Source of the DNA: Acidobacteriota bacterium | GTDB lineage: Bacteria; Acidobacteriota; UBA6911 | DNA length: 64,000 nucleotides | Reading direction: 5' to 3' | Assembly: GCA_963664705.1 (NCBI GenBank) | Contig: OY761556.1 | Location: 1,248,001-1,312,000 of the forward strand | Shown here: one piece after another, positions 16,737 to 57,807 of the stretch | Numbering within the stretch: the stretch's first letter is position 1 | Layout: every line of letters begins with the position of its first letter | Notes under the pieces: model-generated | The model's database searches: none | The model's input: only the letters and a program-made list of their open reading frames with translations | Told to the model about the DNA's origin: nothing | Translations under genes and position numbers: made by a program

Positions 16737-17537
16737 CTAAACAATATCTTCTCCGCCGTCGACTCGAATGATGTTTCCCGTAACCCATGTCGAATCACAC
16801 ATCGCCAGGGAAACCAGGACCTCCGCCACATCCTCTGGCACCGTAAGTCTTTTCCCCGGATTGGATTCCAGGGCCCGGGCGAACATCTGTTCACTTCCCG
16901 GAATCCGCCGGGCGGCAGGAGTGTCGGTGACGCCGGCCTGGATGGCATTCACCGAGATTCCCAAACCAGACAATTCCACCGCCAGCTGCCGGACATGCGA
17001 CTCCAGTGCGGCTTTGGCGGCGGAAACGGCTCCATAAGTGGGCCAGACGCGGTGGCTGCCGGCGCTGGTCATGGCAAATATTTTGGCGCCCTTTTTAAGC
17101 AGCCCTGCCTGCATCAGATCCTGCGTCCAGTACAACAGGCTGTTTGCCATGACATCCAGCGTCATGGTCATATCGGCCGGCTTGATCGCTGAATTGGAAT
17201 CCTGGGCGATATACGGCTTCAGGGTGCCAAAAGCGAGCGAATGCAGCATCAGGGCAATCCCGCTGTCCGAGGCAGCGCTCAAGGCAGGCTTACAGGCGGA
17301 GATGATTTCGGCCCGCCGTTCCGGGTCGGCTGCATTGGCGTTGAAAAAAAGCGCTTCCTGTCCCCGGGCACGTATCTCGGCGATGGTTTTTTCGGCGTTA
17401 GGCATGGTTGCCCTTCGATCCAGATGAACTCCGATGATATCGAAACCGCTTCGAGCCAGCGCTATTGCCGTAGCCGCTCCGAACCCGCTCGATACGCCCA
17501 GGATCAATGCCCATTTTCTTGAGGTGCTTTCCGTCAC
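16737..17537 (-). CDS. SDR oxidoreductase, FabL/FabI-like enoyl-ACP reductase
   Basis: LILGVSSGFG Rossmann motif, Y-x6-K (YGAVSAAK) spacing typical of enoyl reductases, C-terminal VDGG. Confidence 0.7.
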   Translation of the reverse strand: MTESTSRKWALILGVSSGFGAATAIALARSGFDIIGVHLDRRATMPNAEKTIAEIRARGQEALFFNANAADPERRAEIISACKPALSAASDSGIALMLHSLAFGTLKPYIAQDSNSAIKPADMTMTLDVMANSLLYWTQDLMQAGLLKKGAKIFAMTSAGSHRVWPTYGAVSAAKAALESHVRQLAVELSGLGISVNAIQAGVTDTPAARRIPGSEQMFARALESNPGKRLTVPEDVAEVLVSLAMCDSTWVTGNIIRVDGGEDIV

Positions 17538-19218: not shown

Positions 19219-19595
19219 GCGCTGGAGCCGGCCAGGCAATCGCGGCCTGAAAAGGTCGAGGAAAGTCCGAACTCCACAGGGCAGTGTGCCTCGTAACGCG
19301 AGGGAGGGGCGACCCTACGGAAAGTGCCACAGAAAATATACCGCCTTGCATTTGCAGGGTAAGGGTGAAAAGGTGCGGTAAGAGCGCACCGCGTCCCTGG
19401 CAACAGGGATGGCAGGGCAAACCCCACACGGAGCAAGGTCAAATAGAAAAGCGATCCCGCAAGGGATTTAAGGGCGGCCCGTCCGACGCTTTTGGGTAGA
19501 CCGCTAGATCCCCGGAGTGATCCTGGGACAAGATGAATGATTGCCGTCCCTGCCATGCAGGGAAACAGAATTCGGCTTACGGGCGGCTCCAGCGC
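19219..19595 (+). ncRNA. rnpB: RNase P RNA (type A)
   Basis: GAGGAAAGTCCGAACTC, GGAAAGTGCCACAGAAA, GGTAAGAGCGCACC, ACAGAATTCGGCTTAC; P1 pairing GCGCTGGAGCCG/CGGCTCCAGCGC. Confidence 0.97.
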
Positions 19596-36594: not shown

Positions 36595-37659
36595 ATGCCT
36601 CGATCGGTTATCATTGGGAGCGGAACGTGTATTCCTCCCAACCTGGTTACCAATGACATGTTGTCCCGGATCATGGACGCTACCGACGAATGGATCCAGC
36701 AGCGGAGCGGGGTCGAGGCGCGGCACTTCGTTGATGAGGGGACGTCCACATCCGATCTCGGCCTGACGGCGGCTACCCAGGCTATCCAACTCGCCGGCAT
36801 TGACAAAAACGACCTGGACCTCATCGTCTTTGCCACCATGACTCCCGACTACTATTTCCCGGGATGCGGCGGATTGCTTCAATCCAAGCTGGGCATTAAA
36901 GATGTGCCCTGCTTCGATATCCGCCAGCAATGCGCTGGTTTCCTGTACGGCATGCAGTTGGCCGATGCACAGATCCGCGCCGGCGCGGCCAGGACCGTCC
37001 TGCTGGTCGGAGCCGAAACCCATACCGGCTTCATGCCCTGGACCAAGGACAATTACAACTATCTCTACGGCCGTATCGAAACTCCCCCGACCCCGGAGGA
37101 GTATGAATGGAATACTCGGTTCCGCAATGTGACGGTGCTGTTTGGAGATGCCGGCGCTGCCGTCGTCCTGAAAGCGGAAGAAACCGCCGATCGCGGCGTC
37201 ATCGACTGTATTCTTCGGACCAACGGGAGCGATTACGAACGGATTTATGTCCCGGGCGCCGGGTTCAAACATCGGCCATATATCGACATAGAACAGATTC
37301 AGCGGGGCGACCACATTCCTGTAATGAACGGGATGTATGTTTACCGGAATGCCACCCACGCGATGGTGAATGTCACCCGGGAAATCCTTGAACGCAATAA
37401 CCTGAAGCTCGAGGATATCTCCATGGTCCTGATGCATCAGGCCAATAAGCGCATCAATGAACGCGTCCAGAAAATGCTGGAGATCCCGGACGAAAAAGTA
37501 ATTTCCAATATCCATAAATACGGCAATACCACCGCCGCAACCATTCCACTGCTGTGGGATGAAGCGGTGCGCAGCGACCGGATCCATCCTGGAGATCTGG
37601 TTTTAATGGTTGCCTTTGGCGCCGGGATGAATTGGGGAGCCCTGCTGCTCCGGGCCTAG
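36595..37659 (+). CDS. fabH: 3-oxoacyl-ACP synthase III (FabH-like)
   Basis: Cys-His-Asn triad (QQCAGF, HQAN, YGNTTAA), LFGDAGAA, AFGAG; first gene of the PKS cluster. Confidence 0.85.
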   Translation: MPRSVIIGSGTCIPPNLVTNDMLSRIMDATDEWIQQRSGVEARHFVDEGTSTSDLGLTAATQAIQLAGIDKNDLDLIVFATMTPDYYFPGCGGLLQSKLGIKDVPCFDIRQQCAGFLYGMQLADAQIRAGAARTVLLVGAETHTGFMPWTKDNYNYLYGRIETPPTPEEYEWNTRFRNVTVLFGDAGAAVVLKAEETADRGVIDCILRTNGSDYERIYVPGAGFKHRPYIDIEQIQRGDHIPVMNGMYVYRNATHAMVNVTREILERNNLKLEDISMVLMHQANKRINERVQKMLEIPDEKVISNIHKYGNTTAATIPLLWDEAVRSDRIHPGDLVLMVAFGAGMNWGALLLRA

Positions 37660-37823: not shown

Positions 37824-39485
37824 ATGGAAAATAAAGGATTGGACAAGGAAGCACTCGATCTGACACTGGAAGCGTTGAAGGACTTCGCTGAAACCCATTT
37901 GCCGGAAAAAAAGATATTGGAGCTCGATGCGACGGAGGAATTCCCGGTCGAGATCGTCCGCGAAATGTGTAACCCGGGGGGACTGGGTATTCAGCTGCTC
38001 TTCATCCCAGAGGAGTTTGAGGGGATGGGTGGGGGAGCATTTGATGTTTACAGGGTTTGCGAGGAACTGGCCCGCATCGACCTTGGAGTTGCGACGGGCG
38101 TATTAGCCACTTTCCTTGGAAGCGACCCGATTATTTTCGGCGGCACCTACGAACAGAAGAAGCTCTGGATGACCCGCATTGGCCAGGAAGGTCTGTTGAT
38201 GGCCTATGGCGCCACCGAGCCGGAAGCCGGGAGCGACCTTGCGGCGCTGCGAACGGTAGCCGATCCCGTTATGGAAGACGGCAAGATCGTCGGATACAAA
38301 ATCACCGGAAACAAGCAATGGATCAGCAACGGCGGCTACGCGGATCTCTATTCCGTATTGGCCAAAACGCCTGGCGGTCCGACCTGGTTTATCGTCGAGC
38401 AGGGCGTTGATGGATTGAGCCATGGGAAGCCGGAGGACAAGCACGGCATACGCGCCAGCAATACTTCAACCGTGTCGCTCGAGGGAGTCCGGGTTGGCGT
38501 GGAAAGACTCATTGGCGGCGTGGAAGGCCAGGGCCTTATCCAGGCGCAGCTGGTGTTTGGCTATACGCGGCTGATGGTCGCCGCTTTCGGGTTGGGCGCC
38601 GGTTGGGCTGCCCTGGATCGCGCCATTCCCTACTCGATGGGCCGCATCGCCGGCGGAGCGCCGCTGTCGGAAAAGCAGGGATACACCCATAAGCTCATCA
38701 TTCCCAACGCCGTACTGCTGGAAGTCGGCCGTTCCTATATAGAAGAAACCGCTGAACGGATTGACAGCCAGGAAGGGAACCTCAATACGGAAGGCGCTAT
38801 TGCGAAATACCTGTCCACTGAAGCCGGAAATCTGGCCGCGGATGCTTCCATCCAGGCGCTGGGCGGATATGGCTATACCCGTGAATATATGGTTGAAAAG
38901 TACAAACGGGATGCCCGGATCACCCGAATCTATGAAGGGACGTCCGAAATCATGGAAATGACGATCTGCCGCGATCGTTGGCAGATACACCTGAAGACCC
39001 ACGGTCAGTTCTACCATGACATGGCTCGTCAGGCGGAGGAGCTTCATAAGCAGAACAACAAGCTGGGTGCCGATGTGGTGGCCTATTGCCTCCACGGTCT
39101 GGCCGATCTGCTCGAAGTGGCTCGGGCCCAGAGATTAACGCGGCATCAGCACATTCTTTTCCGGCTGGGCGAGTGGATTGCTCATGCCGAAGGCGTCTCC
39201 AGTCTTGCAAGGCGTGCCGGCAGAGCCGCCCAGGGGACCTTAAATCCAAAGTCTCACACCCGCTTCAATGCGGAAACGCTGGCTGCCCTCAGCCGGATTG
39301 CCGCCCGGGAAGCCGCCATGAAAGTGGTGAGCGAAGGGATGCGCTGGATCGGTGGTTTGATATCCGAAGCCGATGCGGCCGCCCTTGAGAAGAAATTGTT
39401 CATCCCGCAAATCCATCGCGCACAGGTTGGATTGCTCCAAGATATGGACTTCGTTGGAGACGTTTTATACGGAAGAAATAAATAG
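37824..39485 (+). CDS. Acyl-CoA/acyl-ACP dehydrogenase with C-terminal extension
   Basis: [40 protein letters not shown] (catalytic Glu); 553 aa. Confidence 0.9.
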
Positions 39486-39702: not shown

Positions 39703-42700
39703 ATGAAAGTATCTGCAGCGGAAAGAGCAGTTGCAATAGTTGGCGTCGGAGCCCTGATGCCGGATGCGCCGAATGCGCCGAAATTCTGGCAGAACGTCCG
39801 AGGGGGCGTTTACAGCATCAAGGATGTCGTGCAAGAGCGTTGGGATCCCAATCTGTATTACGATGCGGATCCGAAGGCTCCAGATAAGACCTATTCCAAG
39901 ATCGGCGGATGGGTTCGTGACTGGGAGTGGGATCCGCTAAAATGGAAGCTCCCCATTCCTCCCCGAGTCAGTCTCGCAATGGACCTGACCCAAAAGTGGG
40001 CCGTTGTCACCGCGAGAGAAGCCTTGGCGGATTTCGGCTATCCCAGCCGCGCCCTGAACGCTGAACGCACCGCCGTCATTTATGGCAATGCAATGGCCGG
40101 AGATACGCATCTGTATTCCGCCGCCAGGATTCTCTTTCCGGAGTTTGCGGAAGAACTGATCAAATCCACCAGCTATTCGGCCCTGCCGCCCGCAGTGCGC
40201 GAGTCGATCATGGAACAGCTCCATGAAGGCGTCCGACGCAAGACTCCTCCAATCACGGAGGATACGATGCCCGGGGAACTGGCCAACATCGTGGCCGGCC
40301 GCATCGCGGCTCTGTATGATTTCAAAGGGCCGAACTATGTAGCCGATGCCGCCTGCGCATCTGCCATGGCCGCGATGAGCGCCGCAATCGAGGGATTGAA
40401 TGCCCACGATTACGATGCCGTCCTGACCGGCGGAATCGACACGAACATGAGCCCCTCCACCTTCGTAAAGTTCTGCAAAATCGGCGCCCTGTCCGCAACC
40501 GGGTCCCGCCCTTATGCGGAAGGCTCCGACGGGTTCGTCATGGGGGAAGGCGCCGTTACGTTCCTGCTGAAGCGGTTGGCCGATGCCGAGCGGGATGGCG
40601 ATAAGATTTATGCGGTTATCCGCGGGATGGGCGGATCGAGCGATGGCAAAGGGAAGGGAATCACAGCGCCCAACCCGGCCGGACAAAAGATCTGTGTCCG
40701 CCGGGCCTGGCAGAAGGCCGGCGTGCTGCCCACGGTTGGCGATCTGATTGAAGGGCACGGCACCTCGACCGCAGTCGGCGACGTCGCCGAGTTTGAGAGC
40801 ATTGCCGAAGTCTTCAATGATTTCGGGCTGCCCAAGCAATCGATTCCGCTGGGCTCCGTGAAGTCCAACATCGGACATCTCAAAGGCGCGGCCGGATCCG
40901 CAGGTATTTTGAAGGCAATGTTCGCGCTGCATGCCAGAGAACTGCCGCCCAGCCTGAATTTCAATGAGCCCAACCACAACATCAATTTCAAAGACTCGCC
41001 GTTCTATGTGAATACGCAGTTGAAGCCCTGGGATGTGGAACCGGGAAAGGCACGCCGCGCGGCGGTCAGTGCCTTTGGATTCGGCGGTACCAATTTCCAT
41101 ATTGTTCTTGAAGAATACATCCCCGGCCGGATTGCCGGAGAGATCAAGACAACCACTTCCGTCCCGGTCTCTGCCGTGGCCTCCGCCCCTGCGGAGTTGA
41201 AGACGCCGCTGCGCGGAGCCCTCGTTTTGGGCGCTGATAACGAAGCTGCGGTCGTTGCCCGGCTGCGCGACATAGTCAAGGACGCGGAAGCCGGCAAAGC
41301 CCCGGCACCTGCCGTTCCGATGGAATCGGATCTGCGCGCTTCCGTCCGCCTGGCCATCGATTATGGCAATGCGGCTGAGCTTGCCGACAAGGGCGCCAAG
41401 GCGCTCAAGGCATTCGAGGAAAATCAGGTCGGGCGTTGGAAGGCGCTGCGCGCCAAGGGCATTTTCCTCGGCAAAGGCCCGGCTCCCAAGGTAGCTTTCC
41501 TGTTCACCGGGCAGGGCTCGCAGTACGTCAACATGATTCAGCACCTGCGGGAAACAGAGCCAATCGTTACCCGGACATTTGAGGCCGCCGATCGCATTAT
41601 GGAACCGCTGCTCGGCAAACCGCTGACCGAATGCATCTACCTCGACAAGTCGGATGCGGCGGCATTGGCAGCAGCCGAGGAAGGCCTCAAGCAGACCGCA
41701 ATCACGCAGCCCGCGGTTCTGGCCACAGAGACGGCGCTGGCGCGCATGCTGGGCGCCTACGGTATTCAGCCTGATATGGTGATGGGCCACAGCCTTGGCG
41801 AATACGGCGCCCTGGTTGCCGCCGGCGCCATTTCGTTTGACGAGGCTCTGAAGGCCGTCAGCGCACGCGGCAACGAGATGACCAAGTGTGCCTTCGATGA
41901 CAACGGTATGATGGCCGCTGTCGGCGGGCCGATTGACGAGATCCAGAAAGTCCTGGAAACGATCGACGATTACGTGGTTGTCGCCAATATCAACAGCACC
42001 AAGGAAGCGGTCATCGGCGGTTCCACCCAGGGAATCGAAAAAGCGATCGCTGCCCTGGGCACCGCCGGATACACGGCAAAAGCGCTGCAGGTAAGCCACG
42101 CGTTCCACACCAAGATCGTCGCGCCTGCGGGCGATTCCCTGGCCCGGATTCTCGGCGGCATGAACCTCCGTCCGCCGCAAATCCCGATTGTGACGAATGT
42201 GACCGGCGAGTTTTATCCCATGGGACCGGGCGTGGTTCCGGAGATGATCGGTCTGCTCGGGAAACAGGTGTCGTCCCCGGTTCAGTTCATCAAGGGGCTC
42301 AATACGCTCTACAATGCCGGTGCTCGGATTTTTGTCGACATCGGTCCAAAGCGAATCCTGTATGGATTTGTGGATGATGTGCTTGGCGCCAAAGATGGTG
42401 TTGTCCCCCTGTTCGGGAATCACCCGAGAATCGGCGATGCGGCCTCTCTGAATCTCGCGCTGTGCGGTCTCTATGCCGCGGGCCTGGGATTTGGTGAACC
42501 GGCGAAAGCGGTGGCTGTCGTTCCGGCGGCTCCGGTGGTCGCGGTTCCCGCGGTGCAGGCTTCCCTCACGGCGGCTCCGTCTGCGCCATCCTATCGGATG
42601 GAAAAGCTCGATCAGCCGCAGCGCGTGGCTCCTGCGTCATCCGACCGGTATGTCGAATTGGGCAAACTGTTCACCGAATTCATGGACCGCGGCTTCCAGC

Positions 42701-45700
42701 TTTACTCCGGCGGCGGACAGCGTGGACAGGCTCCCGTGGACATTTGTATCACAGGGGCGGCTCTGGGCCTGCCGGGCGTGAATGGCGTTTTCGACGATAC
42801 GAACGTTGAAAAGATTCTCCGCGGCGATGTATTCATCGACAAGATCCCTGCGCATTTGCGCGAGGCGATGGTTGAAAAGAACATTACGCGGCTGGTGAAA
42901 TCCGAAGGGGGCGAAGGAAGATTCGAAACCATCGGAAGTACGGCGGATGTGATCAAGCTGGCGGCGCGCGCCAAGGAATTCGATATCGTTCGCGATTTCG
43001 GCTTCCCAGAGGACCGCATGCCTGCGCTGGACCGCGTGACGCAGCTGGCCATTGGCGCCGGTATCGATGCGCTGCGCGATGCCGGCATCCCGCTGGTTAT
43101 GCGCTACAAGACCACCACGAAAGGAACTTTGCTTCCCGATCGTTGGCAGCTGCCTGAAGAGATTCGTGATGACACGGGAATCCTCTTTACTTCGGCATTC
43201 CCGGGATACGATTCCTATGAAAAGATCATCGCCGATTTCTACAAGGACAAGAATCGTCGTCAGCGCCTGGAAGAACTCAGCAGCCTGCGCGAACTGGCCG
43301 CCAGAGCCGGTTCCGGCAACGGCGTTTCCCAGGAACTCGACAAGCGAATCAAAGACCTGACGGAGGAGATCGAAAAGAATGTATATCATTTCGATCGCCG
43401 TTTCCTGTTCCGCGTTCTTTCAATGGGCCATTCCCAGTTCGCCGAATACATCGGCGCCCGCGGGCCCAACACCTCGACCAACGGAGCCTGCGCAAGCGGC
43501 ACTCAGGCCGTCGGGCTCGCCAGCGACTGGATCCGTACCGGACGCTGCAAGCGCGTCATCATTGTTTCCGCGGACGATATCACTTCTGAAAACCTCATGG
43601 GCTGGTTCGGTTCCGGATTCCTGGCTTCCGGATCGGCTGCGACGGATGAGATCGTCGAAGATGCGGCCACTCCGTTCGATCGCCGGCGCCATGGCCTGAT
43701 CATTGGAATGGGCGCATCCGCCGTCGTGATCGAAAGTGTGGACTCGGCCCGCGAGCGCGGCGTCCGCCCGATCTGCCATGTGCTGGGATCGGTGGTGGCC
43801 AACAGTGCGTTCCACGGAACCCGTCTGGACACGAGCCACATCCGCCACGTGATGGAAAGACTGATTTCCACGGCGGAAAAGGAATGGGGTATCAATCGGT
43901 TCGAGATAGCTCCCGAGACGGTATTTGTTTCCCATGAAACATACACGCCGGCCCGCGGCGGCAGCGCATCGGCGGAAGTCTTCGCGCTGCGGCACGTGTT
44001 CAAGGATGCGACCGATCAGATTATCGTGGCCAATACCAAAGGTGCCACCGGGCACCCGATGGCCGTGGGTATTGAAGATGTCGTTTCGGTCAAAATCCTG
44101 GAAACCGGCATCGTTCCCGCTGTTCCCAATTTCAAGGAAGTGGACCCCGAACTTGGCCAGCTGAACCTCTCAAAAGGCGGACCGTACCCCGTGCGCTATG
44201 CGTTGAGACTGGGTGCCGGCTTCGGATCGCAGATTTGTATGACCCTGCTGCGCTGGGCGCCCACCCCCGATGGGAGACGTCCGGCTCCGACAGGGCTCGG
44301 TTACCAATACAGAATCGAAGATCAGACCGCCTGGAACAACTGGCTGAAGCGCCTTGCGGGCAATAATGCGGCGGAGCTGGAAGTGGTACAGCGCACGCTC
44401 CGGATCAAAGATCAGGGCGTTGCCGCAAGAATGGAAAACGGGAATGGATCGGCTGCCGCCACAATTCCTCAGATTGCCGCCCCGGCGGCTGCAATATCGG
44501 AACCGGCGCCGGCTGTTTCTGCTCCTGCTGCGACGGCTGTGCCTTCAGCGGTGGAGCCGGCTGCGTCCATCTCCGACCCGGTGAAAGATGCGGTCATGCG
44601 GATTATCGCCGAAAAGACCGGCTATCCCTCCGACATGCTCGATCCCGATCTTGATCTGGAAGCGGATCTCGGCATCGACACGGTAAAACAGGCGGAGATG
44701 TTTGCCGCCATTCGAGCGGAATATGACATCCCGCGCGAAGACAACCTGAAGCTGCGCGATTTCCCGACGCTGGCGCACATCATCCAGTTCGTGTATGACC
44801 GCCGGCCGGATATGAAGCGCGCGGCAGCCCCTGTTCAGGCTGCCAAAGTTTCCGAGCCTGCTCCTGCAGCAGCGGCGACAGCACCGGCTCCGGTGCAGGC
44901 CGCCGCGGCGCCGGCCGATTCCGGCGATGATGCCGTGAAGGAAATGGTCCTGAAGATCATCGCGGAAAAAACCGGGTATCCCTCCGACATGCTGGACCTG
45001 GATCTCGATCTCGAGGCAGACCTCGGGATTGACACGGTAAAGCAGGCCGAAATGTTTGCCTCAATCCGCGCGGCCTACGACATTCCGCGCGAGGACAATC
45101 TGAAGCTGCGCGATTTTCCGACGCTGGCGCACATCATTCAGTTTGTGTACGACCGGAAGCCCGATCTGAAACCGTCGGCCAAACCGGCCGCGGCGGCAGC
45201 ACCCGTTGCCGCACCGGCGGCAGTGGCTCCTGCGGCAGCCGCAACCGAAGATGATGGCGTTAAAGACATGGTCCTCAAGATCATTGCGGAAAAAACCGGC
45301 TATCCACCGGATATGCTGGATCTCGATCTCGATCTCGAAGCAGATCTTGGGATCGATACCGTAAAGCAGGCCGAGATGTTCGCGACCATCCGCGCGGCTT
45401 ATGACATCCCGCGCGAAGACAATTTGAAGCTGCGCGATTTCCCGACGCTGGCGCATATCATTCAGTTCGTGTACGACCGGAAGCCCGGGTTGAAGCAGTC
45501 CGATGCGACCGGGACTCCGGCCGAATCGAAGGCTGCGGAACCACCGGCAACGGCGGAAGCGCCCAAACCGGTAGCGGCCAGTTTTGATGCCGCCAACGCC
45601 GTGCCAAGGCGTCTGCCCGTTCCCAAACTTCGGCCGGCGCTGAGTGTCTGCAAGCCAACCGGCGTTGCTCTGAAACCGGGAAGCCGGGTCGTCGTGATGC

Positions 45701-48120
45701 CGGACCAGGGCGGAGTAGGAAAAGCTCTGATCGGAAGACTCGAGAAGCTCGGAGTCCAAGTCCTTGTGATCGACGGCGTGCCCGATGTGAAGTTCCTCGC
45801 GAAATACATCGAGGGATGGAAGGCCGAAGGCCCGATCCAGGGGATTTACTGGCTCCCCGCGCTTGATCAGGCCGGCGATGTTTCCTCCATGACTCTTGTT
45901 CAGTGGAAGGAAGCGACGCGGGTGCGGGCAAAGCTGCTGTTTGCCACGATCCAGAGTCTTTACGATCAGATCGGCGAGCCGGGAACTTTCCTGGTTTCCG
46001 CGACGCGATTGGGCGGCCAGCATGGATACGATGAAGCCGGCGCGGCCGATGCCCTGGGTGGATCGGTGTCCGGGTTCACCAAAGCCTTCAAACGTGAGAA
46101 GCCGAATGCAACCGTAAAGGTGATCGACTTCGAGCCGAGCCGCAAGACAAGCGCACTCGCGGATCTCCTGGTGGATGAAACGCTCCGGGATCCGGGAGCG
46201 GTGGAAATCGGCTACAAAGATGGCCAGCGTTTTACGGTTGGTCTGGTTGAAAGGCCGGTTGCGGAAGCGACACCGGTTCAGCTCAACAAAGATACGGTCT
46301 TTGTGGTAACCGGCGCGGCAGGAAGCATCGTTTCCGCCATCACCGCGGATCTTGCGGCCGCTTCGAGCGGAATCTTCTACCTGCTCGACCTCACGCCGGA
46401 GCCGGATGCGGCAAACAGCGACCTCGCTCGCCTGGTGACCGATAAAGAAGGCTTGAAGCGCGATATCTTCGAACGGTTCAAAGTGCGTGGCGAACGCGCG
46501 ACACCGGTCATGGTCGATCGCGAAATCGCCTCGCTCGAACGGTCCCGCGCTGCACTGGATGCCATCCTGGCCGTCAAGAACGCAGGCGGAACGGTTCACT
46601 ACTGCAGCCTCGATTTGACCGATCAGGGTGCGGTGGGCAAAGTCGTCAAGGATATCGCCGACCGGTATGGCCGCATCGATGTTTTGATGCACGCTGCCGG
46701 CCTCGAAATCAGCCACATGGTTCCCGACAAGAAGACGTCGGAATTCGACCTTGTCTTCGATGTGAAGAGCGATGGCTGGTTCAACCTTCTTTCCAGCATG
46801 GGAGAAATGCCGCTCGGCGCGGCGGTGGTATTCAGCTCCGTTGCCGGACGCTTCGGCAACTCCGGGCAGACCGATTACAGCTCGGCCAATGATCTGCTCT
46901 GCAAATGCATCTCGAATTTCCGCACGACGCGGCCACAGACAAGAGGTATCTCGATTGACTGGACGGCGTGGAGTGGAATCGGAATGGCATCCAGGGGCTC
47001 CATTCCTGTCATCATGAAACAGGCCGGCATCGATATGCTTCCTCCCGAGGCCGGTATCTCGATCGTGCGCCGCGAACTGCTGGCCGGCACGGGTGGAGAG
47101 CTTGTGATCGGGCAGAAGTTGGGAATCCTGGTTCAGGAATTTGATCCGCAGGGCGGACTGGATGTGACTGCTGGCGGAACGCTTGAAGCGTCGCTGAAGG
47201 ATCGCGGGATCATGATCGGAGCCGTCGAGGGCATGGGTCTGTACGGTGGATTGACGATTGAAACAACTCTCGATCCAACCCAGCAGCCGTTCCTCTTCGA
47301 CCACCAGATCAGTCAGACCCCGGTGCTTCCGGGCGTCATGGGTCTGGAAGCCATGGCGGAAGCCGCCAGGCTTCTCTTCCCGGACCGCTATGTCGGAGCC
47401 ATCACCGATGTCAGCTTCATGACTCCGTTCAAGTTCTATCGCAACCAGCCGCGCGCGATTAAGATCTACGTGGACTTCTTCGCGGACAACGAGGATATCG
47501 TCGCGGATTGCAGGCTTGTCGGTTCTCGCCTGCTGCACGGGCATGCGGAACCGGAAATCACGACGCATTTCACCGGTCGTGTGCGCCTGACAACGCAACC
47601 GCCCAAGGCTGCCAAGGAAAACGCCGTCTCCGCGCGAACGAGCGGTGCCAGGGCGGAAGCGGCGCAAATCTACAAGGTTTACTTCCATGGACCGGCGTAT
47701 CAGGTGATCGACAGCGCATGGCAGTCGGGCGGCAACATTGTCGCATCGTTTGCCAGGGAACTGCCGGTCAACCATGTGCCGGCCGAACTGCCGGTGCTGG
47801 CTTCGCCAAGGTATGTGGAACTCTGCTTCCAGGCGGCCAGCCTGTCCGGACTCGCCGGACAGTCGCGGCTTGGTTTGCCGAATTCCTTCAAGGAGCTGCG
47901 AGTCCTCTCGATGCCTGAGAAGGAGTCGGATGGAAACTTCTTCTCCGTGGTTGCCACCAACCCGGATGGGACCTATGATGCGAAGGTGCTGGACGGCAAG
48001 GGAAAGGTTTATCTGACCCTCCGCGGCTACCAGACCATGGATCTCCCGGATCCGGTTCAGGCGGATCTCATTCAGCCCATCAAGGCAGCGTTGCAGCCGG
48101 AGCTGTCGGAGAAAGCATAA
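39703..48120 (+). CDS. Iterative type I PKS/FAS: KS-AT-KS-ACP-ACP-ACP-KR-DH (PfaA-related), 2805 aa
   Basis: KS1 DAACAS/HGTST/GHLKGAAG; AT GQGSQ/GHSLG/HAFH; KS2 NGACAS/HETYT/GHPM; three ACP-like DLEADLGIDTVKQAEMF repeats; KR TGAAGSI..GQTDYSSAN; DH DHQISQTPVLPG..FHGPAYQ. Confidence 0.92.
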   Translation: MKVSAAERAVAIVGVGALMPDAPNAPKFWQNVRGGVYSIKDVVQERWDPNLYYDADPKAPDKTYSKIGGWVRDWEWDPLKWKLPIPPRVSLAMDLTQKWAVVTAREALADFGYPSRALNAERTAVIYGNAMAGDTHLYSAARILFPEFAEELIKSTSYSALPPAVRESIMEQLHEGVRRKTPPITEDTMPGELANIVAGRIAALYDFKGPNYVADAACASAMAAMSAAIEGLNAHDYDAVLTGGIDTNMSPSTFVKFCKIGALSATGSRPYAEGSDGFVMGEGAVTFLLKRLADAERDGDKIYAVIRGMGGSSDGKGKGITAPNPAGQKICVRRAWQKAGVLPTVGDLIEGHGTSTAVGDVAEFESIAEVFNDFGLPKQSIPLGSVKSNIGHLKGAAGSAGILKAMFALHARELPPSLNFNEPNHNINFKDSPFYVNTQLKPWDVEPGKARRAAVSAFGFGGTNFHIVLEEYIPGRIAGEIKTTTSVPVSAVASAPAELKTPLRGALVLGADNEAAVVARLRDIVKDAEAGKAPAPAVPMESDLRASVRLAIDYGNAAELADKGAKALKAFEENQVGRWKALRAKGIFLGKGPAPKVAFLFTGQGSQYVNMIQHLRETEPIVTRTFEAADRIMEPLLGKPLTECIYLDKSDAAALAAAEEGLKQTAITQPAVLATETALARMLGAYGIQPDMVMGHSLGEYGALVAAGAISFDEALKAVSARGNEMTKCAFDDNGMMAAVGGPIDEIQKVLETIDDYVVVANINSTKEAVIGGSTQGIEKAIAALGTAGYTAKALQVSHAFHTKIVAPAGDSLARILGGMNLRPPQIPIVTNVTGEFYPMGPGVVPEMIGLLGKQVSSPVQFIKGLNTLYNAGARIFVDIGPKRILYGFVDDVLGAKDGVVPLFGNHPRIGDAASLNLALCGLYAAGLGFGEPAKAVAVVPAAPVVAVPAVQASLTAAPSAPSYRMEKLDQPQRVAPASSDRYVELGKLFTEFMDRGFQLYSGGGQRGQAPVDICITGAALGLPGVNGVFDDTNVEKILRGDVFIDKIPAHLREAMVEKNITRLVKSEGGEGRFETIGSTADVIKLAARAKEFDIVRDFGFPEDRMPALDRVTQLAIGAGIDALRDAGIPLVMRYKTTTKGTLLPDRWQLPEEIRDDTGILFTSAFPGYDSYEKIIADFYKDKNRRQRLEELSSLRELAARAGSGNGVSQELDKRIKDLTEEIEKNVYHFDRRFLFRVLSMGHSQFAEYIGARGPNTSTNGACASGTQAVGLASDWIRTGRCKRVIIVSADDITSENLMGWFGSGFLASGSAATDEIVEDAATPFDRRRHGLIIGMGASAVVIESVDSARERGVRPICHVLGSVVANSAFHGTRLDTSHIRHVMERLISTAEKEWGINRFEIAPETVFVSHETYTPARGGSASAEVFALRHVFKDATDQIIVANTKGATGHPMAVGIEDVVSVKILETGIVPAVPNFKEVDPELGQLNLSKGGPYPVRYALRLGAGFGSQICMTLLRWAPTPDGRRPAPTGLGYQYRIEDQTAWNNWLKRLAGNNAAELEVVQRTLRIKDQGVAARMENGNGSAAATIPQIAAPAAAISEPAPAVSAPAATAVPSAVEPAASISDPVKDAVMRIIAEKTGYPSDMLDPDLDLEADLGIDTVKQAEMFAAIRAEYDIPREDNLKLRDFPTLAHIIQFVYDRRPDMKRAAAPVQAAKVSEPAPAAAATAPAPVQAAAAPADSGDDAVKEMVLKIIAEKTGYPSDMLDLDLDLEADLGIDTVKQAEMFASIRAAYDIPREDNLKLRDFPTLAHIIQFVYDRKPDLKPSAKPAAAAAPVAAPAAVAPAAAATEDDGVKDMVLKIIAEKTGYPPDMLDLDLDLEADLGIDTVKQAEMFATIRAAYDIPREDNLKLRDFPTLAHIIQFVYDRKPGLKQSDATGTPAESKAAEPPATAEAPKPVAASFDAANAVPRRLPVPKLRPALSVCKPTGVALKPGSRVVVMPDQGGVGKALIGRLEKLGVQVLVIDGVPDVKFLAKYIEGWKAEGPIQGIYWLPALDQAGDVSSMTLVQWKEATRVRAKLLFATIQSLYDQIGEPGTFLVSATRLGGQHGYDEAGAADALGGSVSGFTKAFKREKPNATVKVIDFEPSRKTSALADLLVDETLRDPGAVEIGYKDGQRFTVGLVERPVAEATPVQLNKDTVFVVTGAAGSIVSAITADLAAASSGIFYLLDLTPEPDAANSDLARLVTDKEGLKRDIFERFKVRGERATPVMVDREIASLERSRAALDAILAVKNAGGTVHYCSLDLTDQGAVGKVVKDIADRYGRIDVLMHAAGLEISHMVPDKKTSEFDLVFDVKSDGWFNLLSSMGEMPLGAAVVFSSVAGRFGNSGQTDYSSANDLLCKCISNFRTTRPQTRGISIDWTAWSGIGMASRGSIPVIMKQAGIDMLPPEAGISIVRRELLAGTGGELVIGQKLGILVQEFDPQGGLDVTAGGTLEASLKDRGIMIGAVEGMGLYGGLTIETTLDPTQQPFLFDHQISQTPVLPGVMGLEAMAEAARLLFPDRYVGAITDVSFMTPFKFYRNQPRAIKIYVDFFADNEDIVADCRLVGSRLLHGHAEPEITTHFTGRVRLTTQPPKAAKENAVSARTSGARAEAAQIYKVYFHGPAYQVIDSAWQSGGNIVASFARELPVNHVPAELPVLASPRYVELCFQAASLSGLAGQSRLGLPNSFKELRVLSMPEKESDGNFFSVVATNPDGTYDAKVLDGKGKVYLTLRGYQTMDLPDPVQADLIQPIKAALQPELSEKA
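44575..45490 (+). repeat. Three near-identical ACP-like domain repeats with Ala/Pro-rich linkers
   Basis: IIAEKTGYPxDMLDxDLDLEADLGIDTVKQAEMFAxIRAxYDIPREDNLKLRDFPTLAHIIQFVYDR at about 44575, 44929 and 45253. Confidence 0.92.
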
Positions 48121-48124
48121 CCTC

Positions 48125-48844
48125 ATGATTTCAGATGCCGGATTTCAGATTTCAGAATGTCCTGATGGACAGAGCTGGAATCTGAAATCCGGGGACTGGA
48201 ATCTCCTCTGCATTACCCGTACCTCGAAACAGATTCCCCTGGATGATAACTGGCTAAGCAAGGAAGAGCGTGAGGTGGTGTCGGCATTTCGCTTCCCAAA
48301 GCGAAGAACCGATTGGCGCCTGGGTCGCTGGACGGCAAAACAGACCATTTGTCTGCTTAAGAATTGGGGCGATTCCGCGCTTGCATCGCTGGAAATACGT
48401 TCGGATTCCAATGGAGCGCCGGAAGTTTTTTTTGAAGGAAAGCCGGCCGACGTCTCCATCTCGATCAGCCACAGCGGGGACCGGAGTTTTTGTCTGGCCG
48501 GCCCGCGAACCCTGGCCGCCGGGTGCGACCTCGAGTGGATAGAACCGCGCGAGAAAAATTTTGCGCCCGATTATTTTACGGATGAAGAACTTGCGTTTGT
48601 GCTGCAGGCGCAGGATAAACGCGAAATGGCCGAAACGCTTATCTGGAGTGCGAAGGAATCCGCCCTTAAAGTCATCCGCAAAGGATTGACGCTGGACACG
48701 CGCAGCGTTGGGATTCGGCCGGATTTCGCCGAGCCGAGTGAAGTCTGGCAGCGCTGGACCGGTAAGTCCCTGGATCCGCCAAGGATCTACCATGGCCTCT
48801 GGCGCGCAGCCGACAGTTTTATCTATACGCTGGCTGTAGCGTGA
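48125..48844 (+). CDS. Sfp-type 4'-phosphopantetheinyl transferase
   Basis: WRLGRWTAK, GAP, SISHS, GCDLE, WSAKESALK; begins 4 nt after the PKS stop. Confidence 0.9.
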   Translation: MISDAGFQISECPDGQSWNLKSGDWNLLCITRTSKQIPLDDNWLSKEEREVVSAFRFPKRRTDWRLGRWTAKQTICLLKNWGDSALASLEIRSDSNGAPEVFFEGKPADVSISISHSGDRSFCLAGPRTLAAGCDLEWIEPREKNFAPDYFTDEELAFVLQAQDKREMAETLIWSAKESALKVIRKGLTLDTRSVGIRPDFAEPSEVWQRWTGKSLDPPRIYHGLWRAADSFIYTLAVA

Positions 48845-50007: not shown

Positions 50008-50730
50008 ATGGCCAAGGAATTTCAGCCGGCGCAACCGTTCCCGCGCACGGCAATAGGTTTTCTGCCGGAATACCTCGATTTTGAGCGGGGCATCCATGTG
50101 GGGAACCTTGAAGAAAATCAGCGCATCACCCGCATCCTGAAACTGGCGCTTGAAGCGCGCTACCGGGAGCCGTTTGTGACGGAACGCTTCGGACGCGGGG
50201 TCTACTGGCAGTGGATTGGTTTTCTGCCGCGCGCCAATCGGAGTGCCAAACCGATCTCCTCAAAGGTCAGTTTCGGGTGCTCCAAGTTTTATTTAACGGT
50301 TGATACGGAGACCAAGGTTTTCAAGTGCGGATTCTCCGTGGAGCGCGGATTCCTCGAGTCCCCGGATTTTCCCGCGATTGAACTGAAGTCCGATTTTGAC
50401 TGGCATCGGCTGACGGCCGCATTGAAGCCTTCGGGCGCAATGGAGCGTGAGTTGAAACGGCTGGTGGTTCGCGAGGGATTCAGAGTCGATGCCGGCAGCT
50501 GGGAGCGTCCGTTTTCGGCGACGAAGAGCCGGTTCCCCAGTATGGCCAAGCTGAAAAGCGCCCTCGATGAGGCCCCGGGCGCATCATGGGCAGGTTTTCA
50601 GGTATACTACCCGATGCCGGAAAAAGATGTGCGCGGCTCATCCGGAGTCGATTTGATTGAATCGATGATGGCCATTTTTGACGAGGTCACTCCGGCGATG
50701 AATTTGTGCATGCAGATCCGGCTCGAGTAA
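50008..50730 (+). CDS. Hypothetical protein
   Basis: 240-aa ORF with globular composition filling the gap between the AKR gene and serA; family not recognised. Confidence 0.7.
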   Translation: MAKEFQPAQPFPRTAIGFLPEYLDFERGIHVGNLEENQRITRILKLALEARYREPFVTERFGRGVYWQWIGFLPRANRSAKPISSKVSFGCSKFYLTVDTETKVFKCGFSVERGFLESPDFPAIELKSDFDWHRLTAALKPSGAMERELKRLVVREGFRVDAGSWERPFSATKSRFPSMAKLKSALDEAPGASWAGFQVYYPMPEKDVRGSSGVDLIESMMAIFDEVTPAMNLCMQIRLE

Positions 50731-56094: not shown

Positions 56095-56171
56095 GCGCCC
56101 ATAGCTCAGGTGGATAGAGCATCTGCCTTCTAAGCAGAGGGTCGCAGGTTCGAATCCTGCTGGGCGTACCA
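56095..56171 (+). tRNA. tRNA-Arg (anticodon UCU)
   Basis: GCGCCCA..TAGCTCAG..TCTGC-CTTCTAA-GCAGA..GGTTCGAATCC..TGGGCGT-ACCA; 77 nt with encoded CCA. Confidence 0.96.
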
Positions 56172-56225: not shown

Positions 56226-57807
56226 GGAAAACCTGAAGAAAACCTGAGGAAAACCTGAAACCGAAAACCTGGACACCCACGAAAAAGGAAAAACCTGGAC
56301 ACCCATGAAAACCTTTGAGGGAATTGAGGAAAAACCTGGACACCCACGATTTGTTCGTCTGACCGAATGAGGAGTTTCGGAAAGGTCTTGGCGGAAATTC
56401 CCGACCGATGATTCATGTTGCTGAGGAATACGGGAAGAAAGCTTGTAATGGGCTTAGCTGTTACTGCTTGAGGCGAGTAAACAAGCCTGTTGCGAGGAGA
56501 GATGCGAAGTCTGAAGGGGCGCGTAGTTTAGATCCGGAATAGATCCTATTGATCTGGAATGCAATTGGCCTTGAGGCTATGTAAAAGCAGACCGAGCGGC
56601 CGACAAGCCCTTTATCCAATGCCGGTTGAGCCGTCCCGCGAATTCACGCATGTGCGTCAGGCTGCCGGCGGCCACCTGGAATGCGGAACCAAAATGCGAC
56701 ACTGTTTCAATCCATTCCTTGGGAATAACTCCAATGCGATTCAGGATCGGGGCAAGACGGCTATCAATGAACCCGCGCTTGTCAGAGCGAATCATGCGTC
56801 CCGATCGGTCGACCAAATCAAAATACTCGGCTGTGGATGTGTCGAGGATACCACGCCGGCTCGGGGTTGATTGAATTGGGGCCAACCAACAGTCTGCAGA
56901 ATCCCGAAGAGAAGAGCTCGAAGCAGTTCCGGGTGTTGAGGGAGCATTAATCGTGTCATCAGTTTGACAAGGAGAACAATCGAAAGCCGGGCCCGAATCA
57001 CTGGGTTGAGGGGCTGGTTGCTGGGACAAGGATTGGCGATGCCAGGCGCGGATACGCTCCTGAATGCTGGTGAAGTCGCTGTCTTCGGGAGTGGAGGCAG
57101 CGCCGGCCCGAACCATATTCAGATCCACATAGACCAAGCAAGCTGTAATGGCAGAAGCATCCAGAAGCACCAGGCATTTAAAGCGAGATTCCCAGAAGCG
57201 GCCCTTGACCTTATCTTCCTTGTTAGCCTTGCGAGCGATGAATTCACTGAGTTTGGCCACGAACCAGCTCAGGCTGCCCAGCCGCTTGCGCAGAACAGTA
57301 ATGTGTTCCGGACAATCTGCTAATGCCTGGATCTGTTCGACCCTAGGAGGAAGAGGCTTTTTGCTGGTGCGCGGTTTTCGGGGGCAGAGTTCTAGCCATC
57401 GGGCGGCGACGTCGAGATCGGACCAGGACTCAAGAATGTCGGGTCGGGTTCGCAAGATGGAATGCACGTGGTTTTCCATGATGGCATAACCGCACACGTC
57501 AATGGCGAAGATGCCGGCAAGTTGTTTCAAACGATCGAGAATCCATTTTTTGCGATGGGAGAAATCCCGGCCGCTAAGAGGGTCATACCCGCAAAGAAAA
57601 GATCTGCGGACACATCGACTGATGCAATGATAAACGCCTTCCTCACCTTCGATGACATAGATGTTTCTTGCCAATCCCATGGTTTGCCTCCTTGCATAGT
57701 TACTAATGGCGAACCTTGGGAATTGAGCGAAGAAAAATTGGAGGCAATGGAACAAAACAGTGGGTGTCCAGGTTTTTTCCAGGTTTTTCAGGTTTCCCAG
57801 GTTTTTC
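56226..57807. mobile_element. Y1/RAYT-like element with 18-bp inverted repeats and stuttered end arrays
   Basis: AAAAACCTGGACACCCAC (56330-56347) / GTGGGTGTCCAGGTTTTT (57760-57777) flank the transposase; extra copies at 56227-56315 and 57779-57807. Confidence 0.8.
56577..57680 (-). CDS. HUH/Y1 transposase (REP-associated tyrosine transposase-like)
   Basis: YHCISRCVRR, YAIMENHVH (HUH), GRFWESRFK, VYVDLNMVRAG (catalytic Tyr); AAGGAGG RBS before ATG 57680. Confidence 0.88.
   Translation of the reverse strand: MGLARNIYVIEGEEGVYHCISRCVRRSFLCGYDPLSGRDFSHRKKWILDRLKQLAGIFAIDVCGYAIMENHVHSILRTRPDILESWSDLDVAARWLELCPRKPRTSKKPLPPRVEQIQALADCPEHITVLRKRLGSLSWFVAKLSEFIARKANKEDKVKGRFWESRFKCLVLLDASAITACLVYVDLNMVRAGAASTPEDSDFTSIQERIRAWHRQSLSQQPAPQPSDSGPAFDCSPCQTDDTINAPSTPGTASSSSLRDSADCWLAPIQSTPSRRGILDTSTAEYFDLVDRSGRMIRSDKRGFIDSRLAPILNRIGVIPKEWIETVSHFGSAFQVAAGSLTHMREFAGRLNRHWIKGLSAARSAFT

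Follow-up and report, generated by a model that had tools for sequence, protein, structure and literature searches.

What does a second ketosynthase (KS) do in a one-chain lipid synthase that already carries one, and what does such a synthase make? The question is raised by a locus in a window of 64,000 nucleotides (the whole stretch of DNA analysed; positions 1,248,001 to 1,312,000 of contig OY761556.1, assembly GCA_963664705.1, from an Acidobacteriota bacterium of the UBA6911 lineage). Using a Pfam scan and motif inspection, an open reading frame (ORF) of 2805 aa at 39703-48120 (+) was found to encode a megasynthase of the order KS1-AT-KS2-ACP3-KR-DH (AT, acyltransferase; ACP, acyl carrier protein; KR, ketoreductase; DH, dehydratase). 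The Pfam scan detected neither a thioesterase nor an enoyl reductase (ER) domain in it, confirming the missing thioesterase reported by a first-pass annotation of this DNA. Shulse and Allen (2011; PMC3098273) described the Type R secondary lipid synthases, of unknown product, as KS-MAT-CLF-ACP(3-6)-KR with a 4'-phosphopantetheinyl transferase (PPTase), MAT being a malonyl acyltransferase and CLF a chain-length factor; the one-gene layout KS-MAT-second KS-ACP(3-6)-KR and the downstream PPTase gene are both found here. The answer that we favor is that KS2 is a second decarboxylative KS, likely elongating short chains, and that the synthase is the likely primary fatty-acid source of its genus; we give this combined reading about an even chance.

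The first-pass annotation had described KS2 as a divergent domain between the AT and the ACPs that retains a Cys-His-His set, and this proved accurate: NGACASG was located at residues 1260-1266 (Cys1263), VSHETYTP at 1409-1416 and KGATGHPMAVG at 1446-1456, Cys218 was likewise correctly assigned to KS1, and the stretches noticed as a helical insertion are present at residues 1185-1200 and 1212-1225. KS2 is not a recent duplicate of KS1, because the two share only 20% identity over 101 residues. Conservation was followed in 150 diverse relatives (representatives of the listed clusters at 50% identity, reaching down to ~35% identity) and in a close-homolog set of 185-186 sequences selected by KS2 similarity. 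Cys1263 is kept in 148/150 diverse relatives and 185/185 close homologs, His1411 and Glu1412 each in 144/147 and 186/186, Lys1446 in 143/148 and 186/186, and His1451 in 146/148 and 186/186; the set of Cys1263, His1411, Lys1446 and His1451 is retained in 96-99% of the diverse relatives. Phe1507, which corresponds to FabF F400, is kept in 135/143 of them, and conserved KS2 counterparts exist for FabF C163, H303, K335, H340, F400, T305, T307, H268, T270, E314 and E349. In FabF the two histidines serve decarboxylation, and H268 and T270 matter for activity (10.1101/2021.02.13.431092). The Gly of the GAC motif is found in only 7/150 diverse relatives and the Pro of the GHP motif in 60/150, while the helical insertion is long in 116/150 and short in 34/150; on these alignments none of the three is a family feature. 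We regard it as highly probable that KS2 is catalytically active.

The fold of KS2 was approached by sequence, by model and by tree. A phmmer search against solved structures gave FabF as the best match (E 1e-24). In an AlphaFold model of the domain (mean pLDDT 94.5, with 71 sequences in the alignment) the insertion appears as two long helices (KS2 domain residues 158-191 and 195-214), and the top 50 rows of a Foldseek search with this model were all FabF/KAS II, mitochondrial KAS or type II KS-alpha proteins. In a wide structural search the model matched E. coli FabF with Z 46.9 and a root-mean-square deviation of 2.2 over 400 residues; the Z values, which depend on chain size, were 46.3 for the actinorhodin KS, 43.9 for FabB and ~36-43 for modular and iterative type I KS domains, and lower for Pks13 (39.0), PfaC (34.3), mycobacterial fatty-acid synthase (FAS; 34.1), yeast FAS (32.7) and FabY (32.1). 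OleA is missing from the structural ranking, whose 50 rows do not exclude it, and an ESM Atlas search with KS2 returned generic KS clusters only. The special likeness to the KS of fungal and mycobacterial FAS-I that had been read from the GAC and GHP letters found no support, as those letters are not conserved and the FAS-I values fall under those of modular polyketide synthase (PKS) KS domains and FabF. Retrieval of FAS-I KS sequences gave no match with PF18314 in 61 Actinomycetota genomes, where the control was likewise blank, or with PF08354 in 5, and none was listed by a spread plasmid search. A quick maximum-likelihood tree of 49 rows with SH-aLRT support was built with hand-set Pfa domain borders and without FAS-I and Pks13, which were compared by structure alone. 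Its 19 KS2 rows join into a single clade with a long stem (SH-aLRT 100); that clade belongs (99) to the side of the tree that holds FabF, FabB and the type II proteins, away from KS1, PfaA, PfaC and the type I CLFs. The type II CLF, the PfaC CLF and the CLFs of relatives all fall outside this clade. One row, PfaC_CLF_Nostoc, was mis-cut, is not a KS and has a very long branch; it was left in.

The second KS of Type R was labeled a CLF in 2011 (PMC3098273), which would leave its cysteine unused. The strong divergence of KS2 from KS1 fits that label, but the Cys, His, Lys and His are near-invariant down to ~35% identity, and true CLFs coexist with KS2 and lie outside its clade: three relatives (P0252, P0256 and P0258) have, after KS1, a CLF lacking both histidines and, in addition, an intact KS2. 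We consider it very improbable that the label is correct. With its catalytic residues kept, a clade of its own and true CLFs beside it, KS2 is, as far as sequence can tell, not a CLF; the near-invariant catalytic set, the FabF-like fold and the three relatives make it very likely that it is an active KS, as the first-pass annotation had proposed. Two other relatives carry an extra domain after KS1 that keeps Cys and His, and P0218 and P0259 have three KS domains each, with the cysteine kept in all.

Net charge is -15 for AcpP and -6 or -7 for the built-in ACPs. The basic patch R64, K65, R68 and K69 of FabF acts in the contact with AcpP; in KS2 neither this patch nor R206 is conserved. Mapped on E. 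coli FabF, the KS2 family has the signature I108F, G107A, F398A, G304E, D311A/S, D265S, N404I/L/V, G402S and R206G. The position of Ile108 is taken by Phe in 138/148 aligned relatives and by Tyr or Trp in 9 more, with further bulky pocket changes beside it (G107A, A193V/I, G198L/M). The I108F variant of FabF mainly elongates C6 to C8 (PMC9006962), so that Phe at this position points to a short-chain enzyme; we hold the case for a preference of KS2 for short acyl chains to be evenly poised. D265, N404 and G402 form the gate of FabF, and mutants there lose most activity (10.1101/2021.02.13.431092). As H268 and T270 are kept, the gate of KS2 appears to be rebuilt, not lost. D311 is replaced by Ala or Ser in 141/147 relatives, a change that accompanies the gain of the nearby Glu1412, which may be a structural carboxylate that has moved.

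For the role of the synthase in the cell, 61 genomes were compared, 30 of them from this Acidobacteriota genus, including the source genome (G000; a single contig, 98% complete). There the synthase AT is the sole match to PF00698, and loose searches with two FabD queries gave nothing beyond it. FabD scores above cut-off in 28/61 genomes, in 0/30 of the genus and in none of G031-G033. Canonical FabF is above cut-off in 0/30 genus genomes versus 31/31 outside the genus, and a threshold of E<=1e-60 brings up no further FabF-like gene in 24/30 of the genus. The synthase is present, whole or in part, in 29/30 genus genomes (a strong KS2 match in 27/30, and synthase pieces at contig ends in two more); in G007, an assembly of 800 contigs, AT, KS2 and fabH are jointly absent. 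The gene order is plsX-fabD-acpP-fabF-etfB in G030, G034, G035 and G036, plsX-acpP-fabF-etfB in G031-G033 and plsX-acpP-etfB in all six genus genomes inspected: fabD, then fabF, were deleted stepwise from the plsX-acpP operon. G030, G035 and G036 have no synthase, and G034 has it together with fabD and fabF. In a phylum sample (its tallies include one unpublished genome, G146) KS2 was found in 17/301 genomes, and the seven carriers belonging to this family are without FabD. The two lost activities, FabD and FabF, match those that the synthase is equipped to provide, which leads to the reading that it is the primary source of fatty acids for membrane lipids in this genus; judged from these gene contents, that role seems probable. 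Throughout the family, including genomes without the synthase, etfB-etfA lie directly after the acpP/fabF genes (L101-L105, L126-L133), and the source genome has an accessory cluster (L100; G000:C1:6266931-6269665) with an ACP, a FabF-like KS and a type III PKS-like gene.

Much of the remaining type II pathway is retained. FabG is above cut-off in 24/30 and AccA in 22/30 genus genomes, a FabH ortholog is present in 29/30, and the source genome keeps FabZ, AcpP, PlsX and PlsC. For enoyl reduction, an FabL-like short-chain dehydrogenase/reductase (SDR) occurs in 30/30 genus genomes and 38/61 overall, below all NCBIfam cut-offs, and never together with FabI (FabI is present in 16/61 genomes, and 7/61 have neither); it probably represents an Acidobacteriota subtype of enoyl-ACP reductase that is so far undescribed. 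In the family, the 34 genomes that bear the synthase or belong to the genus all lack FabI, and the three others, which carry no synthase, have it; FabK is above cut-off in 0/61 genomes, with weaker matches in 16/30 of the genus. The absence of FabI had suggested that acyl-CoA dehydrogenase (ACAD) is the sole enoyl reductase, an idea that was rejected on finding the FabL-like SDR in every genus genome. ACAD with electron-transfer flavoprotein (ETF) can act as enoyl reductase in the wax-ester fermentation of Euglena (PMC6587861), and may be the missing ER here, the FabL-like SDR being an equally good candidate in this genome. Elsewhere in the source genome there is an oleABCD-like cluster (L120; G000:C1:5052874-5057675), of the kind that makes hydrocarbons by head-to-head condensation, its members near but mostly below the Ole family cut-offs. 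At L134:2698-6105 (-) (G000:C1:946697-950104) a fatty acyl-AMP ligase-like gene precedes a fusion of ACP and class I/II aminotransferase, and a reductase lies upstream; this looks like an amino-lipid or sphingolipid-type pathway.

Type R is a widespread family. At least 4031 of 7988 scored proteins are KS2 homologs, a count that includes distant KS matches, and at least 435 Type R loci were found in species genomes. Members listed in 2011 are Koribacter, Solibacter, Elusimicrobium minutum and Roseiflexus, and that paper considers Types M and S, but not Type R, as candidates for core fatty-acid synthesis (PMC3098273). The nearest named records are Acidobacteriota, one of them titled UBA6911, and records titled Candidatus Korobacteraceae have the same layout with 67-68% KS2 identity. 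Among 88 loci, many of them ended by contig borders, ACAD lies beside the synthase in 73, ETF occurs in 43-44, an Fe-S/CCG oxidoreductase and a PPTase in 43 each, a one-chain biotin carboxylase after the synthase in 29, FabH upstream of the ACAD-synthase pair in 12 and a wax ester synthase/diacylglycerol acyltransferase (WS/DGAT) in 8. An N-terminal FabK-type ER is fused in 11/62 long representatives (P0154, P0155, P0173, P0181, P0189, P0215, P0225, P0236, P0252, P0256 and P0258), most of which also have a C-terminal PPTase; several other relatives keep only a ~300-residue remnant of the ER region. The source names of ER-fused forms are Bradymonadaceae bacterium, Desulfobacterales bacterium and, for P0154 on a 19.5 kb contig and by its source name only, an Asgard-group archaeon. 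By their domain content, the one-chain forms with both ER and PPTase would need only a release domain to cover saturated fatty-acid synthesis completely. A metagenome scan with P0154 gave five loci, cut off on their downstream sides; no fused ER and no upstream ACAD was seen in any of them. In the cultured Nonomuraea gerenzanensis (L111; NZ_LT559118.1) the cluster reads WS/DGAT ... ACAD-synthase-one-chain carboxylase-PPTase ... glycerol-3-phosphate dehydrogenase-like gene, which suggests a storage lipid there.

The following scheme would account for a primary role. The AT, to judge from sequence the only malonyl transferase in the genome, would charge the three built-in ACPs, and probably free AcpP as well, with malonyl. 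FabH or KS2 would prime, and KS2, its pocket predicted to be closed by Phe, would run the first cycles, with the PfaA-like KS1 taking the later ones, comparable to the division by chain length in synthases of polyunsaturated fatty acids (PUFAs). Intermediates could be processed by the built-in KR and DH or by the retained FabG and FabZ, with enoyl reduction by the FabL-like SDR or by the neighboring ACAD with ETF. Transacylation through one of the KS cysteines or through the AT would hand finished chains over to AcpP or CoA, for use by PlsX, PlsC and LpxA. For the KS and MAT domains of PUFA synthases, complementation of E. coli fabB/fabF and fabD mutants is reported (reviewed in PMC9702510). 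Decarboxylative elongation by KS2 we rate as moderately probable.

Several observations weigh against this reading. F398 of FabF is replaced by Ala in 141/144 relatives, which might open the pocket again and so cancel the short-chain argument, and the altered gate network (D265S, N404I/L/V and G402S; GFGS) indicates that KS2 does not work exactly like FabF. The tree comes from a quick search and has a long KS2 stem. A release domain was not found, so that one of the domains must offload, and KS2 is a candidate. A weaker FabF-like gene is present in 6/30 genus genomes, including the source genome, and the FabF-like gene of L100 passes the broader KAS II subfamily cut-off. AccA is not above cut-off in 8/30 genus genomes, some of them 97-99% complete. 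The other 10 of the 17 phylum carriers keep FabD, and there the synthase is accessory; 4/5 carriers from other groups keep FabD as well. FabD is also missing above threshold from 14/284 phylum non-carriers (G211, G289, G298, G306 and G369, of one genus, and nine others), for which divergent FabD, assembly gaps or another replacement are possible. The losses are one inherited series of events in a single lineage, not independent cases. Two AMP-ligase-ACP-acyltransferase fusions of 840 and 904 aa (L135:3459-5981 (-) and L136:3931-6645 (-)) could scavenge outside fatty acids into lipids.

For KS2 the strongest rival is offloading, because no release domain is known: a finished chain on Cys1263 would be passed to free AcpP or CoA in place of a thioesterase. 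This would suit the lack of a recognized thioesterase in the synthase, in 13 long relatives scanned, in the precomputed domains of 120 homologs and among the conserved neighbors, as well as the keeping of KS2 even where KS1 has its own CLF, the need of the genus for acyl-AcpP to serve PlsX and LpxA, the WS/DGAT genes in 8/88 loci, whose products use acyl-CoA, and the remodeled gate residues, with HETY and GH(P/A) recalling the NEAF and GHP fingerprints of thiolases. However, pure transacylation would have no need of F400, the lysine or the two histidines, which show 94-99% conservation; the bulky residues at 107, 108, 193 and 198 predict a shallow pocket, and the FabF basic patch and R206 are not kept. 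We judge offloading to be unlikely. Of the altered chemistry that the first-pass annotation had suggested, transacylation or chain release stands as this main rival, with no thioesterase in any relative scanned, and non-decarboxylative head-to-head condensation is not supported, as the decarboxylation residues of FabF are kept and the genome has a separate oleABCD-like cluster. The same two observations count against any joining of two long chains by KS2, whether OleA-like and non-decarboxylative with Glu1412 as base or Pks13-like and decarboxylative with a carboxylated acyl-CoA. Such joining could draw on the invariant Glu beside the first His (144/147), on the room that F398 to Ala could make for a second chain and on the one-chain biotin carboxylase gene after the synthase in 29/88 loci, but the gain of Glu is paired with the loss of D311 and looks like a moved structural carboxylate, the Pks13 KS reaches Z 39.0 versus 46.9 for FabF, and the loss of fabD and fabF would be left unexplained; chain joining is accordingly a distinctly unlikely reading.

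KS2 could also take the place of FabF directly on free AcpP and, together with the AT, make up a normal type II cycle in which FabG, FabZ and the FabL-like reductase take part. This would fit the loss of precisely fabD and fabF, with AcpP and the reductive enzymes retained, the FabF fold of KS2 and the precedent for PUFA-synthase domains that act in trans. We nevertheless find this improbable: carriers that keep FabD conserve KS2 to the same degree, FabF stands beside KS2 in three sister genomes, KS2 is without the FabF basic residues although AcpP is strongly acidic, Phe at 108 predicts short products, and KS1 could be the trans-acting domain. The last rival concerns the role in the cell and not the chemistry of KS2, and says that the genus obtains its membrane fatty acids by scavenging and that the product of the synthase is a special or a storage lipid, which might serve as an electron sink at low oxygen. 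The synthase probably makes such a lipid in carriers that keep FAS II, and the ligase-ACP-acyltransferase fusions, the complete beta-oxidation pathway reported for genus UBA6911 (10.1101/2021.04.09.439258), the AccA result in 8/30 and the Fe-S oxidoreductase-ETF-ACAD (43-44/88) and WS/DGAT (8/88) neighbors, which resemble the wax-ester fermentation of Euglena (PMC6587861), would all fit. Yet genomes throughout the genus retain FabG, the FabL-like SDR and FabH, whose gene adjoins the synthase; these retained genes would be without evident use lacking malonyl-ACP, of which the synthase AT is the only source found, and the synthase is near-universal in the genus (29/30) and rare in the phylum (17/301). 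Scavenging in place of synthesis is rather unlikely on balance, and the favored reading remains a second, decarboxylative KS in a synthase with a primary role.

The features of the locus are collected in Table 1. The genes for fabH, ACAD, the synthase and the PPTase form a same-strand run, an aldo-keto reductase is also among the neighbors, and no PfaB, PfaC or PfaD gene was found by Pfam among the neighbors of the synthase in the window. Against NCBIfam models the synthase scored 970.9 bits with TIGR02813 (PfaA; cut-off 1010.1), 144.3 with TIGR03150 (FabF; 493.75) and 378.7 with NF040607 (Pks13; 2100). There is no sign of a recent transfer of the synthase, because its GC content at third codon positions (0.69) equals that of its neighbors (0.65-0.69). 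A promoter and terminator scan of the locus gave counts close to shuffled levels. A 240-aa protein at 50008-50730 (+), without a Pfam or NCBIfam match, is found downstream of the synthase in 10/82 loci. The window also holds a class A RNase P RNA at 19224-19594 (+) and one tRNA at 56095-56168 (+), which is adjoined by a 392-aa ORF at 56577-57755 (-) without a Pfam match, presumably resembling a transposase.

Table 1. Coordinates in the window of the synthase domains, key KS2 residues and associated genes.
Feature	Position	Strand	Basis or remark
FabL-like SDR, likely stand-alone enoyl-ACP reductase	16737..17537	-	best solved relative 3oic, an NADPH enoyl-ACP reductase; unlinked to the synthase
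fabH (KAS III), likely primer-forming	36595..37659	+	TIGR00747, 310 bits, above cut-off 292
ACAD, 553 aa, candidate trans enoyl reductase or desaturase	37824..39485	+	Pfam ACAD domains; best NCBIfam matches below cut-off
KS1, PfaA-like type I ketosynthase, Cys218/His352/His392	39724..41118	+	groups with type I KS in the tree
AT, malonyl transferase, GHS motif	41488..42378	+	Pfam, residues 599-889
KS2, FabF-fold ketosynthase, residues 1012-1520	42736..44262	+	motifs, phmmer, model, tree
Phe1166, aligned to FabF Ile108 (back gate, acyl pocket)	43198..43200	+	alignment
Helical-hairpin insertion in KS2	43207..43377	+	model; variable across the family
Catalytic Cys1263 of KS2	43489..43491	+	conservation
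HETYT motif: His1411 (FabF His303), family-specific Glu1412 (FabF Gly304)	43933..43947	+	alignment
Lys1446 and His1451 (FabF Lys335, His340)	44038..44055	+	alignment
Three tandem ACPs	44578..45480 (44578-44802, 44932-45156, 45256-45480)	+	first at residue 1630
Ketoreductase	46288..47037	+	Tyr2392 invariant
PKS-type dehydratase	47200..48072	+	His2534 invariant
PPTase	48125..48844	+	Pfam

Type R synthases are present in hundreds of genomes and have had no product assigned since 2011, and the CLF label hides an active site. A genus without fabD and fabF that carries the synthase is the first functional handle on Type R, and ordinary membrane fatty acids are the predicted product. If this is true, a "secondary lipid" synthase has overtaken primary metabolism in visible steps, a multidomain design is added beside type II FAS and mycobacterial FAS-I, and genome-based pathway calls wrongly mark such lineages as fatty-acid auxotrophs. 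A wider proposal, which we offer tentatively and with more doubt than confidence, is that Type R represents a third, unrecognized design of primary fatty-acid synthase in prokaryotes, one with two active KS domains, PfaA-like and FabF-like, on a single chain; it would have displaced FabD and then FabF in this Acidobacteriota family, with an ACAD-ETF-quinol module where no ER is fused and complete one-chain forms (ER-KS-AT-KS-ACPn-KR-DH-PPTase) in other bacteria and in a record that bears the name of an Asgard archaeon. In the literature searched, which covered few subscription papers, no paper was found that deals with the product of Type R, the activity of KS2 or the disappearance of fabD and fabF from this lineage; on that basis the corrected reading of KS2 and the genus-wide stepwise loss are new, and the Type R architecture, with its second KS domain, was already known.

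Compared with known systems, KS2 shares with OleA and Pks13 the thiolase-superfamily type of condensing enzyme, and its invariant Glu near the active site recalls the OleA base. OleA is of the KAS III type with a Cys-His-Asn active site and a Glu as base to deprotonate the second acyl chain, and KS2 differs in having Cys-His-His with Lys and GFG. Pks13 combines one type I KS with an AT, an ACP and a thioesterase, whereas the synthase described here has two KS domains and no thioesterase and scores far below the NF040607 cut-off. Mycobacterial and fungal FAS-I are likewise multidomain synthases without a thioesterase that serve primary lipid synthesis, and some relatives of the present synthase fuse a FabK-type ER and a PPTase; the domain order of FAS-I, AT-ER-DH-MPT-ACP-KR-KS, is different, as are the two KS domains and several ACPs found here, and the FAS-I KS values are Z 34.1 and 32.7. 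With FabF/KAS II and the KS-alpha of type II PKS, KS2 has in common the fold (Z 46.9 and 46.3), the Cys-His-His-Lys-Phe set and its side of the tree; it differs from FabF in being embedded in a type I chain, in its 26% identity over 246 residues, in three insertions and in I108F, F398A, G304E, D311A, D265S, N404I/L and G402S. The Type R description agrees in the KS-MAT-second KS-ACP(3-6)-KR order followed by a PPTase gene, with a carboxylase gene between them in some members; the second KS is here catalytically intact and not a CLF, and the C-terminal DH and the upstream ACAD/ETF module lie outside the 2011 description in its available part (PMC3098273). The PUFA synthases (PfaABCD), in which two active KS domains divide the work by chain length (PMC11962503), have the same PfaA-like KS1, AT, tandem ACPs, KR and DH, but in the present synthase both KS domains stand on one chain and the second is FabF-like, not PfaC-like (PfaC Z 34.3).

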